Position numbers and translations under genes: made by a program
Source: Escherichia phage KIT01
Sequence record: AP019521.1
Direction: 5' to 3' (one strand)
DNA length: 64,000 nucleotides
In this document: piece after piece, positions 5,163 through 50,825 of the stretch
Position numbering within the stretch: position 1 is the first letter of the stretch
How the letters are laid out: the number at the start of each line of letters is the position of its first letter
Notes under the pieces: model-generated
What the model was told of the DNA's origin: nothing
Seen by the model: only the letters and a program-made list of their open reading frames with translations
The model's database searches: none

Positions 5163-5339
5163 TCACTTAGTCAGTAGGTCGTAAAAACCGCCATTAACGT
5201 GTTTAGGAGCCGAGACTAACCGAACAGCCAGCCGTTGGCAATCAGGACAAACATCATTATCTCTTTCAGAGATTTTCTTGATTTTTTCGTATTCTTTTGC
5301 ACAGTCTTCAGATTGGCATTTGTAATCATAAAGTGGCAT
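5163..5339 (-). CDS. zinc-ribbon protein (FmdB-like)
   Basis: start set at MPLYDYKC after GGAG SD; CxxC...CPDC pattern. Confidence 0.5.
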   Translation of the reverse strand: MPLYDYKCQSEDCAKEYEKIKKISERDNDVCPDCQRLAVRLVSAPKHVNGGFYDLLTK

Positions 5340-5550
5340 TATAAGTCTCCTTCCAGAATTCAGTGCCTTCAGCAGTGATTTCACGGAACACTGCATAGAT
5401 AGGGTTTTTATCACCTTGATTTTCGTATACGTAAACCGACGATAAATGAGAAAACGTATCAGAATGTTCCTTTTGAACCACGATTAAATCAGGGTTGAAC
5501 AGGACATCTTCAAATTCTTCACGAGTCGAGTTCACAGTAACTTTAGCCAT
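5326..5550 (-). CDS. hypothetical protein
   Basis: 74-aa ORF, 14-nt overlap with downstream gene start. Confidence 0.4.
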   Translation of the reverse strand: MAKVTVNSTREEFEDVLFNPDLIVVQKEHSDTFSHLSSVYVYENQGDKNPIYAVFREITAEGTEFWKETYNATL

Positions 5551-5621
5551 TTTATTTTCCTCATTTGTTGATAGGGTAATAATATCACTACCCTACCATA
5601 TTGTATACTATTTTTTTAACT

Positions 5622-6191
5622 TTATGCACGATGAGCCGTAGCATATTCAACTATGAAGCTTTCAGGAACTACTTTAAAGCTACCAAGGAATACGATGTTA
5701 TACAGCTTAACACCTTCTTCAACCCATTGGTCTGTGATAAAACCACCCATGATAGTAGTTTTATTAGTTCCACCAAACGGCGGTTCATATTTAAATTCAA
5801 ATGGCTTAGGAGTAACAAAACGCACACCTTTACCTAATTTCCATTTGAAATCAACGCCAACATGAGATTGATCAATAGTTTCAACGTCTTGAGCTACTAC
5901 GCCACGGATATCATTGCTTTCACATACATACCCATCGTGGGATTCAACTTCTTCAACCACTGGGGTGTGAACCGGTTCAGGAACTACCGGACGCGCTTTA
6001 CCGACCTGAGGAATCAAAGTGACATAGCGTTCTTTAACGTATCCTACAAAAGAAGAAACGAAACCATTGGAACGAAATGCCTGGACTTTAACAAGACCAC
6101 GAGAGAAATTGAATCCAATAATAATACATTTTTTACCAGCAACTTTAGATTTAGAATCTTCGGAAACTGTTACGATATCACCGATTTTCAT
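5622..6191 (-). CDS. hypothetical protein, paralog A (shared C-terminal ITDQWVEEGV domain)
   Basis: 189 aa; C-terminal GGFITDQWVEEGVKLYNIVFLGSFKVVPESF resembles neighbour 6269..6823. Confidence 0.5.
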   Translation of the reverse strand: MKIGDIVTVSEDSKSKVAGKKCIIIGFNFSRGLVKVQAFRSNGFVSSFVGYVKERYVTLIPQVGKARPVVPEPVHTPVVEEVESHDGYVCESNDIRGVVAQDVETIDQSHVGVDFKWKLGKGVRFVTPKPFEFKYEPPFGGTNKTTIMGGFITDQWVEEGVKLYNIVFLGSFKVVPESFIVEYATAHRA

Positions 6192-6230
6192 AATATTACC
6201 TTTTGTTTAGGAATTAGGTTTATTCTCCAT

Positions 6231-6266
6231 GAGAGCCATTATAACATGGCTCTCGATAAAGTAAAC
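6231..6266 (-). promoter_or_regulatory. early promoter cassette with 9-bp inverted repeat flanking -10
   Basis: gtaaac 6261-6266, -10 TATAAT; gagagccat / atggctctc arms at 6231-6239 and 6246-6254. Confidence 0.5.
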
Positions 6267-12520: not shown

Positions 12521-13011
12521 TAGTAGCCACCGATAGGGCCGTAACCGTACATACGAGCTCGTAACTTAGCATCACGAATAGCTTCTTCGGTCGGGGTAAA
12601 ACGCAATCCAATATCAAAGTGTTTCCAAATCTGACATTCTATTTCTATCAGGTCTTCGACGGCAGAAATCAGATAAGTACGACCTTTAAGACGTTCGTTG
12701 GACATTCTATCGGTATCTTTATAGAAAATGTCCATTGTTCCTTCAGCATACGAGTCAGCCGGATAACGATAGCCTTTGATATGTAAGGCTTGAGCCACAC
12801 TAAAAGGACAACCCTCAGCAACATCAACGTTTTGATTATGGCGTACTTTCATCATAACATTTTCTGGAAGCTTAGTATCTTTTAAGCGCGTTTCTAACTG
12901 GGTGATAGAATTCATACCGTTGTCGACAAGGATAAGACTTACCGTAGCATCATAAGGACGCGTTTGACCGGCAGAATCCCGTACATGGAATTCGAGTTCA
13001 TAGACTTTCAT
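12520..13011 (-). CDS. hypothetical protein
   Basis: 163-aa ORF. Confidence 0.45.
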
Positions 13012-44394: not shown

Positions 44395-44689
44395 TTTCGT
44401 CTCGCTCAAATCGGTGTTTGCAATGGCGGCATTTGTAACGAAGATTACTAGTCTGCCAATGGACCAATTGGACCTGTTCTGTACCGCACTCAGGACAGTT
44501 AGGAACATTCTTAGAAGATTGTTCTCGTCGTGCGACCATAGCCATTACGGCATCCCAATTAACAGGGCTATAATCATCACAGCCATGAATCTTACCAACC
44601 AATTCAGCTTCAACATCCTCGGCTTTAATAAATTTCAATAAACCGGTATTAGATGCCGAAGCAATATCTTCAGCTAAACGTTGTTTCAT
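44381..44689 (-). CDS. zinc-ribbon protein
   Basis: 102 aa; CPECG...CRHCKH. Confidence 0.4.
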
Positions 44690-45696
44690 TTCAGCAGCTC
44701 CAGAGCCTGTTCAAGACGGTCTAAACGATTGGTAGACTCTTCCCAAAGTTTCTTGGCAGCAGTATATTGCCCGGTCAGTTTTTTGTTGATAGCAAGGGCA
44801 TCTTTATACGCTTTTTCTAAGGCAACGACTTCTGGTAACTTGGATTTAGTAATTGGTGTAGGGGCCATGATAGGGCTGTTCAAGTCGTTAATCAAGTCTT
44901 CTAATGTAGCAGGCTCTTTATCAGTGTTCACAATTTCCTCACATTTTTCTTGGTAAATTTCAGCATCAGTTTTTGGAACGGTATATTTGATTTCACGGAC
45001 TGTTACTAAAACTTCATATCCTTTCCAGCCTAAGTGGTGTTTAACTTCTTGGGTCTCATATTTCTCTACGGTATCCATCAGAGCTAAAGCTTGTTCGATA
45101 GTATTCAAGGTATCGTAAGCAATATCTTGATACTTTACAACTTCCGCATCATCTTTAGGTTTCCTATTAGGTGACCAAATAACAGAAATAATAGCTTTTC
45201 CTTTATAACTATTTGTTTTAATCATGCAATTAGCCAGCGGGTGAATAGTACGACAATCACCGGAAACTATAGTTTTAGAGGCCGCTTTGAGAATTAATGC
45301 AGAGTTAGCCTTGAATTCGCTAACCCAACGTTGCGGAAATAAACTACTAGGGTCCATACCTTTAATTTTGACATAATCTTTTATGGTATCACCAAACCAT
45401 TTGTAGCTAACAACATGGCTAGAACCCGGATATTTCTCTTTACCGAACTCAGAAAGGATGTCCTTATTGACCAGACGCGAAAGAAGTCGAGAACCTTTAA
45501 ATGTATCTACGATATCAGAAATAAACAAACGGCCTGCGATCTTTTCGATTTCAGCTTTGAAACAGCGCGATAATGCATCATCAATTTGGTCGACCCATTT
45601 ATTGATATTAGAAACTATTACCACATATGGGGTTAATGGAGGGGTGTTGGCAGTGATATACGTAGTAAAGGCATTGATGTATTCAGTACGAGTCAT
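44686..45696 (-). CDS. hypothetical protein with C-terminal coiled coil
   Basis: 336 aa; tail ...[14 protein letters not shown]. Confidence 0.45.
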   Translation of the reverse strand: MTRTEYINAFTTYITANTPPLTPYVVIVSNINKWVDQIDDALSRCFKAEIEKIAGRLFISDIVDTFKGSRLLSRLVNKDILSEFGKEKYPGSSHVVSYKWFGDTIKDYVKIKGMDPSSLFPQRWVSEFKANSALILKAASKTIVSGDCRTIHPLANCMIKTNSYKGKAIISVIWSPNRKPKDDAEVVKYQDIAYDTLNTIEQALALMDTVEKYETQEVKHHLGWKGYEVLVTVREIKYTVPKTDAEIYQEKCEEIVNTDKEPATLEDLINDLNSPIMAPTPITKSKLPEVVALEKAYKDALAINKKLTGQYTAAKKLWEESTNRLDRLEQALELLK

Positions 45697-45704
45697 GATA
45701 TTCT

Positions 45705-45752
45705 CCTCAAGTTGATAGAAAGATTATACTCCATCCATCCTTGGATGTAAAC
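45705..45752 (-). promoter_or_regulatory. early promoter cassette
   Basis: gtaaac 45747-45752; TATAAT; gttgataga core. Confidence 0.5.
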
Positions 45753-45753
45753 A

Positions 45754-46659
45754 TTATTTTAGAGCTAATACTGCCGCGCGGAGCTTGTCACGCTGGAGTT
45801 CCATGTTCTTGATGCGAATCAATACGTCTTGGATACTCTTTTTCTCATCTTCGATTTGACCGTTTAAACGGTGGATTGATTCCTGGAGGTGGTCCTCATG
45901 ATACTTCTCGATAGGTTTCATCGTAGGGTTAGTAACAACCAAAGAATTATCAGGTTTAATTTTCCAATGATACGGTTCGGAATTGAATGGGCTTGGTACA
46001 GCCGTGGTTTTGAATTTGTCATAGGCTGCATACTGGCCTACGCTATCACATGATACGGCAGAGGTAGAGATAGATATACGACGTTCCATTTGTGCGTCCT
46101 TTTGTTGGGATTGATAAGGGGCATAAGACAAAAGATATTCACTAGTTAGTTTAACGTTGATATACACTGCATCAGCCCGTCCAGAACAATCAGCGTATTC
46201 ATCGGTTGTAACTTTATATGATTCTACAGCCTTAATACGGGTCATTGCTTCCCTGAATAAGGTTTCAAATGCTTCACGAAGAGCCTTATTACCTTTTGAG
46301 GTAGGACGGAAACGAACTTGAATGCCGTCATTCAGAATATTAATGACTAGGTTACGAGCCGTAAAATTAATATTTTTGATATTGACAGGAACCGTAGAAA
46401 TACGTCCTGCGGTAGCCAAGAGGTCTTTGATATTAGCTCGCAATGTTGCACCGAACAGGTGGGCCGGGCAACGGCAATAATCGTTCAAAGAACCAATATA
46501 AGTTCCTTTACGGCCTACACCATAAGTATAATTACCATTACAAATATGGCCAAAGTCTGCCAGCCGATCGATAGCGATACGACGAGTCGTGTCATGGTCA
46601 TAGATGGAATATTCTTTACGTGTTTTAATGTTCATATCAGAGTCCAAATAATTTTTCAT
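45754..46659 (-). CDS. hypothetical protein with C-terminal coiled coil
   Basis: 301 aa; tail ...MELQRDKLRAAVLALK. Confidence 0.45.
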   Translation of the reverse strand: MKNYLDSDMNIKTRKEYSIYDHDTTRRIAIDRLADFGHICNGNYTYGVGRKGTYIGSLNDYCRCPAHLFGATLRANIKDLLATAGRISTVPVNIKNINFTARNLVINILNDGIQVRFRPTSKGNKALREAFETLFREAMTRIKAVESYKVTTDEYADCSGRADAVYINVKLTSEYLLSYAPYQSQQKDAQMERRISISTSAVSCDSVGQYAAYDKFKTTAVPSPFNSEPYHWKIKPDNSLVVTNPTMKPIEKYHEDHLQESIHRLNGQIEDEKKSIQDVLIRIKNMELQRDKLRAAVLALK

Positions 46660-46852
46660 AGAATTTAGCGATAGGCCACAGAATTAGCATACATAACCAA
46701 GCAAAGCAAAATACTGGCCATACAAATGTAATGAATACTGCATCATAGCTTGATTCAATTTTAACCGGGTTCCATGCGCCTGTTTTATGCGCAATCAAAG
46801 CAGTAATAAATCCTATCACAAGATATCCAAGAATAAAACTAATAATTTCCAT
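46637..46852 (-). CDS. small membrane protein
   Basis: 71 aa, two hydrophobic helices. Confidence 0.4.
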   Translation of the reverse strand: MEIISFILGYLVIGFITALIAHKTGAWNPVKIESSYDAVFITFVWPVFCFAWLCMLILWPIAKFYEKLFGL

Positions 46853-46854
46853 GA

Positions 46855-47697
46855 TTAATCCTTAAGAAGATTTAGGATATCGATATATTTTTGTCGTTCA
46901 GCCTTAGCTTTAGCGTTCAGACTAGAGAGTCGGAAAATCTCATCATCTTGTTGCTGAATTGTAACATTCAAGCAAGTAAGCAAATTGCTAAAATACTCGA
47001 TTTGAGATTGATGCTTCTCATTGCTGCGCACTGGTACAGGTTCCGGTTTAGGAGCTTCTGGGTGCTCTTCAGCCAGGTCTTTAATTTTATAAAGTTTAAT
47101 ACGCTGACCCGCGCCAGTTTCGGCATCACCAAAACTAAGAACACCGTGCTGTTCTAATTCAGACAAGGCCAGTCGGAGATGGAACTTCCAGTTGTCGTAT
47201 TGACAACCACTGTAATGGGAAATGGTATACTCATTTTCATTTCTGGGGTGGTTAACAATACTAAAGATAATCCAATCACCTGAACCATTGGTCTTAAAGG
47301 TCATTTGTTTATCAAGACCTTTTGCAAGGCGAGCGCCAAGAGCCAGTAGACGTCGTTGGTTGGCATGAAGGTCTTGAACAACTTCGTCAAATGACATCGC
47401 CGGGATTAAACGACCATAAAGGTCGTAGCCTTTGTTATAATTTTTAAGAATAATTTTGGCATTAGCACGAGACAACATACCTGTTTTACGAAGAGTTTTC
47501 ATGACCCGGTCTTCTAAGGTAAAAGACCCTTTGGTCTTGTCAAAGATTTTAGTGAAGTCATCTTTAACAGTACAAACATTGAACTTGTCCCACATCATAT
47601 ATAGAACCTTTTCAACCACTTCTTTAGTACTCGGAATACGACCAAATTTAATAACTTTTTTAACTTCAGAACGAATTTGATTAATTGCCTGTGACAT
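46855..47697 (-). CDS. hypothetical protein with C-terminal coiled coil
   Basis: 280 aa; tail ...AKAKAERQKYIDILNLLKD. Confidence 0.45.
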   Translation of the reverse strand: MSQAINQIRSEVKKVIKFGRIPSTKEVVEKVLYMMWDKFNVCTVKDDFTKIFDKTKGSFTLEDRVMKTLRKTGMLSRANAKIILKNYNKGYDLYGRLIPAMSFDEVVQDLHANQRRLLALGARLAKGLDKQMTFKTNGSGDWIIFSIVNHPRNENEYTISHYSGCQYDNWKFHLRLALSELEQHGVLSFGDAETGAGQRIKLYKIKDLAEEHPEAPKPEPVPVRSNEKHQSQIEYFSNLLTCLNVTIQQQDDEIFRLSSLNAKAKAERQKYIDILNLLKD

Positions 47698-47763
47698 AAT
47701 AATAATTTCCTCAGTAAGTAATTAAGAACCTAGAACCATTATACCATCCTTGGTATAAAGCGT

Positions 47764-48288
47764 TTATGCGAGAACCGTCTTTAAACGCTCTTCAAATTTC
47801 TGAAGCAGAGCTTGGCGTTCAGCTCGTTGTGATTTGTACTGCTCGATACGACCTGAAGTGAGGGCGTACTGTTCGTTTACTGATTCCCGCATGAATTCAG
47901 GAATCTCTTTACAAGCTTTGATTTCGTCAAACTTATCAATAACAGCTTGTTGTTCAGCAATCAGATTATCGAAATAAGCGATATCAGATTTAACGTTTGC
48001 CAGGTCGGATTCGGTAGGCATTAAACGTTTGTTACGTTCAGCTTGATAAGCCTGATTGGTTTCACGACTCCAGTGAAGAGTACGTTTTTTGTTAGTGTTT
48101 TTATAGAGCTCTACAATACCAACTGAATCGATGACTGCAATCCAGTTCCAACGGCTTTTGTAAATCTCTCCTCCGGATACGGTAATCTCATTACCACAAG
48201 CAACATCGTTAAAGAACTTGCTTTGTTTTTCAGATTTGAAATTACCGTTGTTGAAATTAATCAGTGAAAAAATATCTTTAGCGTTCAT
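47764..48288 (-). CDS. hypothetical protein with C-terminal coiled coil
   Basis: 174 aa; tail ...RAERQALLQKFEERLKTVLA. Confidence 0.45.
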   Translation of the reverse strand: MNAKDIFSLINFNNGNFKSEKQSKFFNDVACGNEITVSGGEIYKSRWNWIAVIDSVGIVELYKNTNKKRTLHWSRETNQAYQAERNKRLMPTESDLANVKSDIAYFDNLIAEQQAVIDKFDEIKACKEIPEFMRESVNEQYALTSGRIEQYKSQRAERQALLQKFEERLKTVLA

Positions 48289-48294
48289 GATAAC

Positions 48295-48343
48295 CTCCAG
48301 TAGTTGATAGGTCTATAGTATCATTTCTACTGGAGATGTAAAC
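48295..48343 (-). promoter_or_regulatory. early promoter/stem-loop cassette
   Basis: gttgataggtctatagtatca core; gtaaac 48338-48343; 9-bp arms ctccagtag 48295-48303 / ctactggag 48327-48335. Confidence 0.6.
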
Positions 48344-48696: not shown

Positions 48697-49678
48697 TTAT
48701 TTCAGAAGGGTAACTTCAGCGATTTCGCTCCAGTCATTTTTATCGGTGGCAATGAAGTCCGCCAGATAAAGAGCTGTACGTAATGATACGTTACGAAGAC
48801 GAGATACATTAGCCTTCATCCATGCTAAAGCTTGATAAGTCTCAGCATCAGTCAGACCTCGATTTTGCATCATATCAGTGGACAGGATAACGTCTTCAAC
48901 ACGAACCATAATCTCTTCGTTAGAGTGAACTCCGAGGTCTAAGTAAACTGAACGAGATACTAAAGCCTGGAGGTGTGGAGCAAGTTTAGTTCCACGCTCT
49001 AATTCACGGTCGATATCAACGTTGGTGATGAACACGATGGTGCCTTCGTATTCAAATTCTTTATCGATATTTTTATCATCGAGGTAAGAACTTGAAGTGC
49101 TCCAGCACACCTTACGTTTTTCACCTGTATCCAATGCCGCTTTTAACAGGTTCAGGATATCCATATCAGAGAATACATCAACATCATCAATAAGAAGAAC
49201 ACTATTAGGGCCGCGGTTATTCCAAAGCTGCTCGTAAAGACCGATTCCACTAATCTTTCCGTTGATTGATTTATATTCGATAGTTTCATTTTCGTGGGCA
49301 TTTTGTAATGCTTTATCCAAAGAATACGTTTTACCAATACCTGCGGCACCAGAGATGATAAGGGAACGAATTTTACCATCGATGATTCCGTTGGTCATCA
49401 TGTTCATTACTTTAAAACGTTTGTTAATGCGATGTTTCATTTCTTCAGCGGATTCAGTAACCATTGCAGGAGCTTCAGCACCTTCCATTTCAACGTCACA
49501 TTTGAACACCCATACACCACGTTCAACACCATCAATCTGTACGAATACCTTGCCATCACCGAGGTGAGCTTCGGATTCATGAATTTTGTTAGGGAACCAG
49601 GTTTTACCTGAACTCATGAACGTACCAGAGATTTCATTACCGCGATAGATGCCTTTGTTGATTTTGATAGTTAACATT
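48697..49678 (-). CDS. AAA+/P-loop ATPase
   Basis: start set at MLTIKINKG after GGAG SD and downstream of promoter -10; Walker A GAAGIGKTY, Walker B VLLIDDVD. Confidence 0.6.
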
Positions 49679-49699
49679 ATATTCTCCATTTCACTCAGT

Positions 49700-49743
49700 A
49701 GATTTGATAGGTCCATAATAACATGCTCTACGAGAGTGTAAAC
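49700..49743 (-). promoter_or_regulatory. early promoter cassette upstream of AAA+ ATPase gene
   Basis: gtaaac 49738-49743, 17-nt spacer, TATTAT. Confidence 0.5.
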
Positions 49744-49760
49744 TCTTTTTTGCACTAAAC

Positions 49761-49784
49761 CCAAAAAGGCCCGAAGGCCTTTTA
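49761..49784 (-). terminator. intrinsic terminator after nucleotidyltransferase-fold gene
   Basis: minus GGCC-UUCG-GGCC followed by UUUUU. Confidence 0.5.
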
Positions 49785-50825
49785 TCATTTATAATACGAG
49801 TTGTGGTTGTCGAGGTATACCTCTTCAACGAACTTGTCCCAGAACTTCATGTCTACCTTCTCAGGCATACCGTTCTTAGCGGCCCAGATAGCATTAGTTT
49901 CGACTTCATCAACGATGGCTTCAAGTTCGGCCTGCACATCTTTAAAAGCATGAAGCCCTTGTTTGATTTCAAGGATAAACGGTGCCGTACGTAAAGGATA
50001 TTGGAGGTCACCTGTTTGATAGATTTCCTTCAACTGATAACCAGCACGATAAGCATGGCTCAGAGCTTTCCAGTCAATACCTTCGTTAGCTTCAGCCTTA
50101 CGAGCACGTTCACCATATTCCGCATCGAGCTTATTCAGAGATTGCTTGAGCTCGATTAATGACAGGGTGGTTTGGTATTTACGCCCGAGAACAGTATAGA
50201 ACGTTTGAGGGCCTGTTTTCTCATGGTTATGGAATACCCATTCACAGAATTCGTTTTCAGGGAGTCGATGTTTGATATCTTCTACCTTAGTACGACGTTG
50301 CTTAGTCGAACCATCTTCTTGATAATCGACCCACTGTTCAGGAATCTGGTTAACAATAGCCAGTACACCACGCAGAGCAGCCAGTCGAGAACCCTTAACA
50401 CCATATTTAGAAGCTTGCTTACGGACATACCCTAAATAGGCTTTCATGTTAGTTGTATAGAACCGAGAACGGTTATCTTGGATAAATTTCCATACATCAG
50501 GTAAATCAGATTTAACCACCAGTTCAGGTGGGGTGTGGAGCATATCCAGAGCAACGGTTTCGCCTTCAGCCGCTAGTTTAAAGAAATATTTCAGGCTGTA
50601 AAGCTCATGGTCAACATCATCTTTAGTGTTTTTGGAAGCAGTGTTATTCGTATTCAGGTTGGTATGGTTCATAGCCGTACCTAACAGAATATCACGCGGA
50701 TGTGGAACAAAGATTTCTTTAAAATCGACATCAGATTCCGGAGTACTTGTTCCATAAAGGTGGCTACCGAAGTAGCCTTTCATAACTGTTCTCATTCTTT
50801 GTTCTCGAAGTGGATTACAGGACAC
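49785..50825 (-). CDS. Pol-beta-superfamily nucleotidyltransferase-fold protein
   Basis: 346 aa; N-terminal YFGSHLYGTSTPESDVDF = G[SG]x9-13 D-x-D NTase signature. Confidence 0.5.
   Translation of the reverse strand: MSCNPLREQRMRTVMKGYFGSHLYGTSTPESDVDFKEIFVPHPRDILLGTAMNHTNLNTNNTASKNTKDDVDHELYSLKYFFKLAAEGETVALDMLHTPPELVVKSDLPDVWKFIQDNRSRFYTTNMKAYLGYVRKQASKYGVKGSRLAALRGVLAIVNQIPEQWVDYQEDGSTKQRRTKVEDIKHRLPENEFCEWVFHNHEKTGPQTFYTVLGRKYQTTLSLIELKQSLNKLDAEYGERARKAEANEGIDWKALSHAYRAGYQLKEIYQTGDLQYPLRTAPFILEIKQGLHAFKDVQAELEAIVDEVETNAIWAAKNGMPEKVDMKFWDKFVEEVYLDNHNSYYK

Follow-up and report, generated by a model that had tools for sequence, protein, structure and literature searches.

Four T-even accessory genes with helical C-terminal tails

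We analyzed a stretch of 64,000 nucleotides from Escherichia phage KIT01 (AP019521.1), hereafter the window, and in it four open reading frames (ORFs), P1 to P4, that had been predicted from sequence inspection to code for neighboring proteins with coiled-coil tails. That original prediction placed the four ORFs exactly, all on the minus strand (Table 1), and took them for unknown proteins; they are homologs of T4 NrdC.4, NrdC.5, NrdC.6 and NrdC.8, respectively. The window is part of a T4-like coliphage of the Dhakavirus group, with 92-96% DNA identity to phages E33, WG01, QL01 and IME08 over a 5-kb region. P1 to P4 are already known T-even accessory genes and, for the annotation of the window, mostly ordinary.

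P1 is 44% identical to T4 NrdC.4, is annotated as nrdC.4 in IME08, and belongs to the NrdC.4 family (phrog_1435/PF26897); its place beside nrdC.2 is kept in IME08 and T4. P2 is a member of the NrdC.5/DUF7235 family, with a Pfam PF23882 score of 407.7 bits against a cutoff of 30. It occupies the same genomic position as NrdC.5 of T4 and Bas37, and its identity to them is 21-23% (E=5e-17 for T4 NrdC.5, 23% identical, and 8e-18 for Bas37_0200). It falls in a DUF7235 subgroup restricted to Dhaka- and Gapriver-type phages. In an exhaustive profile search of 1.84 billion representatives, the P2 family was limited to six clusters, all from T-even phages, which leaves no distant relatives on which to test the tail. 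P3 is 49% identical to T4 NrdC.6 and belongs to its family (phrog_2257/PF26899), homologs of which bear precomputed PF26899 matches; the core 'NQRRLLALGARLA-G-x-DKQM-FKT' is invariant in the family alignment (A2). P4, a member of the NrdC.8 family (phrog_2274), is 68% identical to T4 NrdC.8 and, over its full length, 68% identical to Bas37_0203 (E=3e-92), a gene for a protein of 175 amino acids (aa) that has the same neighbors and lies at the NrdC.8 position in the Bas37 record MZ501089. KIT01 has no NrdC.3.

No thioredoxin or glutaredoxin domain was matched by Pfam in any of the four proteins. Many GenBank records nevertheless tag homologs of NrdC.4, NrdC.5, NrdC.6 and NrdC.8 as 'thioredoxin', a label apparently taken from the nrdC.N gene names; one NrdC.8 is labeled 'spanin' and one NrdC.4 'coil protein'. 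In the jumbo Yersinia phage fHe-Yen9-04 (354 kb), positions 12648-12989 code for a sequence with 31% identity to P4 that is confined to residues 6-118, i.e., the head and first helix without the terminal helix.

Heptad signal and predicted structure of the tails

Heptads were scored with a COILS-type matrix, using the best 28-residue window of each protein, and the scores are valid for relative comparison only. In each of P1 to P4, the best window falls in the C-terminal tail. Across the 120 predicted genes of the window, their C-terminal scores take ranks 2, 1, 6 and 3, and of the 49 proteins with 150 aa or more, these four alone are top scorers (threshold, 1.27). In 200,000 permutations, a run of five adjacent genes contained four high scorers 172 times (p=0.00086).

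In AT-rich phage genomes, Leu/Ala/Lys/Glu-rich ends that mean nothing structurally are frequent, and such scores might arise from them by chance. Composition does account for a good part of the signal, shuffled tails scoring about 1.15-1.25, and the matrix score of P3 does not significantly exceed that of its shuffles (p=0.14). However, the order of residues adds to the heptad signal of P1 (p=0.017), P2 (p=0.005) and P4 (p=0.03), and the hydrophobic 3.5-residue periodicity of P3 is significant (p=0.01). The original prediction thus withstood the control for compositional noise in three proteins and, for P3, by periodicity alone. The genomic clustering, the single long helices modeled for P2 and P3, and the absence of gaps in the tails across T-even genera also speak against composition, and we regard a chance origin as highly improbable.

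Monomer models of P2 and P3 were generated by AlphaFold2 with family alignments. Both proteins are modeled as a head followed by a disordered linker and a single uninterrupted helix, which spans residues 227-279 in P3 (mean predicted local distance difference test [pLDDT] score, 81.5; head at residues 1-203, linker at 208-226) and residues 250-300 in P2 (mean pLDDT, 64.5; head at approximately residues 20-180, linker at 181-248). The tails of P1 and P4 contain no internal proline, the one proline of P1 being the first residue of the scored segment, and each has one glycine. In P4, the tail comes after a first helix with a break at Pro128 instead of a disordered linker, and the helical region as a whole adjoins the small head. 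We conclude that the tails are amphipathic helices of some 43-53 residues, longer than the 25-35 residues originally proposed.

Table 1 Features of the P1-P4 region of the KIT01 window
Feature	Position	Strand	Evidence
P1, NrdC.4 homolog, 336 aa; head ~aa 1-255, Pro-rich linker ~256-287, C-terminal helix ~288-336	44686..45696	-	phrog_1435, E=4.9e-144 over 1-336
P1 tail, 49-residue heptad-like segment	44689..44835	-	score 1.57, rank 2/120; shuffle p=0.017; periodicity p<0.001
P2, diverged NrdC.5 ortholog (DUF7235, PF23882), 301 aa; head ~aa 20-180, disordered linker ~181-249, helix 250-300	45754..46659	-	PF23882, E=4.5e-122
P2 tail, 51-residue predicted single helix, ending in ...QRDKLRAAVLALK	45757..45912	-	score 1.65, rank 1/120; shuffle p=0.005; helix 250-300, pLDDT 72-83
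P3, NrdC.6 homolog, 280 aa; head aa 1-205, disordered Pro-rich linker 206-226, helix 227-279	46855..47697	-	phrog_2257, E=6e-124
P3 tail, 53-residue predicted single helix, ending in ...ERQKYIDILNLLKD	46858..47019	-	score 1.27, rank 6/120; periodicity p=0.01; helix 227-279, pLDDT 80-93
P4, NrdC.8 homolog, 174 aa; small N-terminal domain ~aa 1-91, then helical region 92-174 with Pro128 break	47764..48288	-	phrog_2274, E=1.4e-101
P4 terminal helix, ~aa 129-174, ending in ...LLQKFEERLKTVLA, without the end motif of P1-P3	47767..47904	-	score 1.45, rank 3/120; shuffle p=0.03
Predicted membrane protein between P3 and P2, 71 aa, untailed	46637..46852	-	phrog_7899, E=1.3e-32; hydrophobic sequence
Sigma-70-like promoter, TTTACA-17-TATAAT, 11/12 matches, upstream of P1 within the 57 nt that separate it from P2	45723..45751	-	consensus scan, pattern match only
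Promoter-like site upstream of P4, TTTACA-16-TACTAT plus TG, weaker than the P1 site	48315..48342	-	consensus scan, pattern match only

Remote paralogy of P1, P2 and P3

Profile comparisons pointed to common ancestry of the bodies as well. NrdC.3 and NrdC.4 are recognizable as paralogs by BLASTP (E ~1e-7), and the NrdC.3/.4 profile matched that of NrdC.5 after removal of the tail (hhalign probability, 89%; E=2.5e-6). Karamvirus-type phages have a single-copy family (alignment A3) that matched NrdC.6 in both its body and its tail (95%, E=4.5e-8) and, with the same body core motif, NrdC.3/.4 (94%, E=1.4e-7). Direct profile comparison of NrdC.5 with NrdC.6 gave no relationship, their link appearing solely through the Karamvirus family. 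NrdC.8 was not connected to any of these families, the hhalign probability being below 2% both for the full-length protein and for the body. From these comparisons we conclude that NrdC.3, NrdC.4, NrdC.5 and NrdC.6, and hence P1 to P3, form one very diverged superfamily of paralogs whose heads are homologous too, and to which NrdC.8, i.e., P4, is unrelated. In the literature searched, we found no description of this paralogy or of the conserved tail, and nothing on coiled coils in these NrdC.N proteins.

A conserved motif at the end of the tails

P1 to P3 and NrdC.3 share the end motif L-x-x-A-[ILVM]-x-x-L-K, T4 NrdC.3 likewise ending in ...LKDLTAKANGLRNAIEVLK, and the tail is the best-conserved part of these proteins. 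Between KIT01 and T4, identity in the tail exceeds that in the body in each family, and the tail is never gapped: 66% versus 41% for NrdC.4, 29% versus 25% for NrdC.5, 59% versus 44% for NrdC.6, and 74% versus 67% for NrdC.8.

The motif was evaluated with a 12-residue profile anchored at the C terminus, ranking candidates against 820 background C termini. Trained on NrdC.5 only, the profile placed NrdC.3, most NrdC.4, NrdC.6 and both Karamvirus-type C termini above all 820, and T4-type NrdC.4 at 9/820. The end of P3 beat 820/820 with that training, and all but one of the 820 when the profile was trained on NrdC.3, NrdC.4 and NrdC.5; NrdC.8 (P4) ranked between 129 and 398 over both trainings, and between 184 and 398 with NrdC.5 only. 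The threshold is reached by 0.1% of all 12-mers and by 0.5% of those in heptad-rich segments. The best background matches, considered as possible hidden family members, were NrdC.1 and unrelated small proteins, and they were rejected. The relationship extends beyond the last residues, as the Karamvirus (NrdC.6-type) and NrdC.5 profiles align in register over 64 columns, from the helix start 'KP-x-E-x-[HY]' to the last residue (E=8.7e-5). Tail-only hhalign comparisons between families were weak (12-49%), and tail hidden Markov models (HMMs) gave no cross-matches for the NrdC.8 tail. The unusual preservation of the end motif argues for some specific constraint.

Tandem duplication, and thus common descent, suffices to explain the resemblance among the tails of P1 to P3, which probably go back to a single ancestor. 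Gene conversion between tails was considered and rejected, since the tails of different genes share only random DNA matches of 8-13 nt.

These results separate P4 from the other three. The bodies had been described as unrelated, which is correct for P4 and not for P1 to P3, which are remote paralogs by profile comparison. The tail said to be common to all four is shared by P1 to P3, where it is the best-conserved part and carries the end motif, but not by P4. Similarly, the notion of a modular family with variable heads and a conserved helical tail fits P1 to P3 and fails for P4, which shares with them neither body nor motif. As for the comparison of the tails, it was weak by hhalign and by tail HMMs (E=0.06-1) and positive with the anchored profile.

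Copy number and natural variants of the tailed genes

We compared 17 IMG/VR loci anchored on NrdC.10 with those of T4, Manna, Bas41 and Bas37. Between nrdC.10 and nrdC.2, the number of tailed proteins ranges from one to five, T4 having five and Karamvirus-type phages of Enterobacter and Edwardsiella just one. Because the copy number varies in this way among related phages, the tails do not form an obligate set. This bears on the idea that the tails bind each other, the paralogs assembling through a mixed helical bundle into one multiheaded complex directed against several defenses at once. The genes are adjacent, on the same strand and in the same early-gene region, the helices are of nearly equal length (49-53 residues), and they have a common hydrophobic register relative to the C terminus. 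A mixed assembly cannot be obligatory, however, since Karamvirus-type genomes have a single copy, and T4 nrdC.5 alone, provided in trans, restores plating of T4 deleted for nrdC.5, a deletion that could reach other paralogs, on hosts with Dsr1 (PMC9391042). We therefore hold a mixed bundle to be very unlikely.

Two natural variants fit a tail that can work alone or on another head, each being a single observation. The Salmonella phage Manna (PP987310; positions 5194-6252 of locus L003) codes for a 352-aa protein in which an NrdC.6 head ('...QQYDDEI') is joined in frame to the linker and tail of NrdC.4 ('VNTPKEETTLEEL...'); the deletion, which removes NrdC.5 and the head of NrdC.4, apparently took place at a short microhomology, 'EEI/DEI'. 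Manna is a viable phage, and the chimera occurs in 1 of 553 records. The second variant, on an environmental Logan contig of 1.7 kb (SRR23924977; L023, positions 188-439), is an intact 83-aa ORF that consists only of the end of an NrdC.5-type linker and the tail, and that ends in ...QKAKLIAAIESLK. It lies in the NrdC.5 slot, between a small membrane-protein ORF and a full NrdC.4 gene, and was seen once.

Both variants count in favor of the tails being a shared docking module, that is, of the conserved C-terminal helix bringing different heads to one common partner, a hub protein of the host or the phage. The specific pattern of the last 12 residues across families with barely alignable bodies, the status of the tail as the most conserved segment, and the register kept from the helix start to the C terminus point in the same direction. 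However, common descent already accounts for the shared tail, and docking to a common partner is thus not needed; P4 is devoid of the motif, so that the module is not common to all four proteins, and no candidate partner was identified. With its single occurrence, the Manna chimera may be merely a tolerated deletion, and the 83-aa ORF comes from one short contig. Docking to one partner appears unlikely to us on balance. Another reading is that the helix of approximately 50 residues with its L-x-x-A-[ILVM]-x-x-L-K end, instead of acting as a generic zipper, might be a module specialized for assembly or docking, serving to join different anti-defense heads in mixed complexes or to tether them to one host or phage hub. 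This is a doubtful proposition, which we rate as quite unlikely; if it were true, T-even phages could fit new inhibitor heads to one shared scaffold, a possibility at which the Manna chimera hints.

Other apparent variants were set aside. In Escherichia phage vB_EcoM_005 (L006, 155 kb), in-frame tail 'deletions' were rejected as evidence, because NrdC.8, NrdC.5, NrdC.4, NrdC and NrdC.11 are each exactly 33 aa short, which indicates an assembly artifact. A 378-aa protein of Shigella phage Sf25 (P0135), considered as a second chimera, proved to be NrdC.6 with an internal duplication; the tandemly duplicated segment of approximately 84 aa runs from the last part of the head through the linker into the first part of the tail, and is either real or an assembly error. 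In one T4-type genome (L017, 14379-15432), NrdC.4 is broken into ORFs of 200 and 158 aa by a frameshift or a sequencing error.

A putative anti-defense island

Several genes of this region, or their orthologs, are reported to counteract bacterial immunity. T4 nrdC.5 supplied in trans restores the plating of a deletion mutant on hosts with the Dsr1 sirtuin system (Srikant, Guegler & Laub, eLife 2022, PMC9391042), and bas37_0203 has been described as a genuine Druantia III inhibitor (HIDEN-SEQ preprint 10.1101/2025.11.20.689424). The neighboring NrdC.1 is an anti-Septu protein, and gp49.2, encoded a few genes away, inhibits OLD (PMC13096335). The genes from nrdC.3 to nrdC.11 are dispensable on K-12. 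As NrdC.5 has an anti-defense phenotype, and likewise the neighboring unrelated NrdC.8, NrdC.3, NrdC.4 and NrdC.6 are immediate candidate inhibitors of other immune systems. Evolution of the heads is rapid, NrdC.5 of KIT01 being 23% identical to that of T4, compared with 77-87% for the neighbors NrdC.10, NrdC.11 and NrdC.

Starting from the observed identity, homology, architecture and conservation of P1 to P4, our preferred reading, to which we assign a probability of roughly 0.6, is that they are early, non-essential T-even accessory genes and lie in a variable segment, bounded by nrdC and nrdC.10, that acts as an anti-defense island. It would consist of the tandem paralogs P1 to P3, built of head, linker and helix, and the unrelated helical P4, with heads that diversify and tails that oligomerize. 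Each head would be directed at a different bacterial immune system, either by binding it or by acting as its decoy. The tail, which P1 to P3 would owe to a single ancestor and retain under constraint, would oligomerize the inhibitor as a coiled coil, and the oligomer could then bind multivalently to oligomeric defense complexes. By analogy with T4 NrdC.5, P2 may have retained anti-Dsr1 activity at 21-23% identity, and P1 and P3 may be immune-system inhibitors as well. Phage anti-defense proteins are mostly found singly and appear unrelated; here, 'conserved hypothetical' genes would belong to a single, growing family of paralogs that are built alike.

Several points weigh against this reading. 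AlphaFold2 modeled each protein as a monomer, and one predicted helix by itself is no proof of a coiled coil; the P3 tail, moreover, did not significantly surpass its shuffles by the matrix. The link of NrdC.6 to NrdC.3/.4 is transitive and relies on shallow alignments (effective number of sequences [Neff], ~2), the direct comparison being weak (18%, E=1.3e-3) though it placed the same motifs together. Single-family tail HMMs run against 884 proteins gave weak cross-family matches (E=0.06-1, 7-10 bits), albeit in register with the C terminus, and the register of the end-motif profile was fixed after all sequences had been seen. Regarding function, the literature searched gave nothing for NrdC.3, NrdC.4 or NrdC.6, the source for inhibition of Druantia III is a preprint, and P2 is so diverged from T4 NrdC.5 that its target may differ.

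Likeness of the proteins to known systems

The closest counterparts of the four proteins are those of other T-even phages. P2 matches T4 NrdC.5 in genomic position and in its plan of head, linker and helix, and the alignment spans the body, the helix-start motif and the tail, but the identity is low and P2 belongs to a distinct DUF7235 subgroup. P4 is a full-length ortholog of Bas37_0203, from phage KarlGJung, but their sequences diverge by 32%, and activity was reported for the Bas37 protein only. P1 and P3 are homologous to T4 NrdC.4 and NrdC.6 (44% and 49% identity), with the same tails.

Beyond these phages, a sequence search of solved structures returned nothing below E=0.3 for any of P1 to P4, and the significant matches in BFVD were uncharacterized proteins of 310-375 aa from other T4-like phages. 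A viral Foldseek search matched phage tail proteins at E values of at least 0.1 only, with modest scores and a query model of pLDDT 64.5. The resemblance is to tail-terminator or tail-completion proteins (lambda gpU, T5 p142, DUF3168); there is no match to these sequence families, and the gene in question belongs to the early accessory genes and not to the tail genes. We take the likeness as a lead rather than as family membership. DSAD1, from work of Garb et al. in 2022, is reportedly a phage protein that inhibits DSR2 and competes with the tail-tube trigger. NrdC.5 could be analogous to it, as a phage protein that blocks a sirtuin defense sensor recognizing a phage structural protein; this too is a lead only, and no homology is claimed.

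Neighboring genes and putative promoters

Downstream of P1 to P4 lie nrdC.2, nrdC.1, nrdC, pin and gene 49. The upstream genes code for a DUF7203 protein at the NrdC.9 position, the AAA ATPase NrdC.10 and the nucleotidyltransferase NrdC.11. NrdC.10 is an AAA/STAND-like ATPase with a possible C-terminal helix-turn-helix, and NrdC.11 is RlaP-like; their genes (window positions 48697-50825, minus strand) overlap by 4 nt. With 77-84% identity to T4, both are far better conserved than the adjoining tailed genes.

The near-consensus site in the gap between P2 and P1 (Table 1) suggests that P1 may have its own early promoter. Together with the weaker site upstream of P4, it fits early expression of these genes.

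The small membrane-protein ORF between P3 and P2 has a homolog in the same slot of the environmental contig that harbors the 83-aa ORF. The location of small membrane-protein genes varies among phages: between the genes for NrdC.6 and NrdC.5 here, between those for NrdC.8 and NrdC.6 in T4 (NrdC.7; T4 locus L002, 3613-4014), and after nrdC.2 in two other loci (L010 and L011). The 71-aa protein of the KIT01 window and the 133-aa T4 NrdC.7 look like members of different families.

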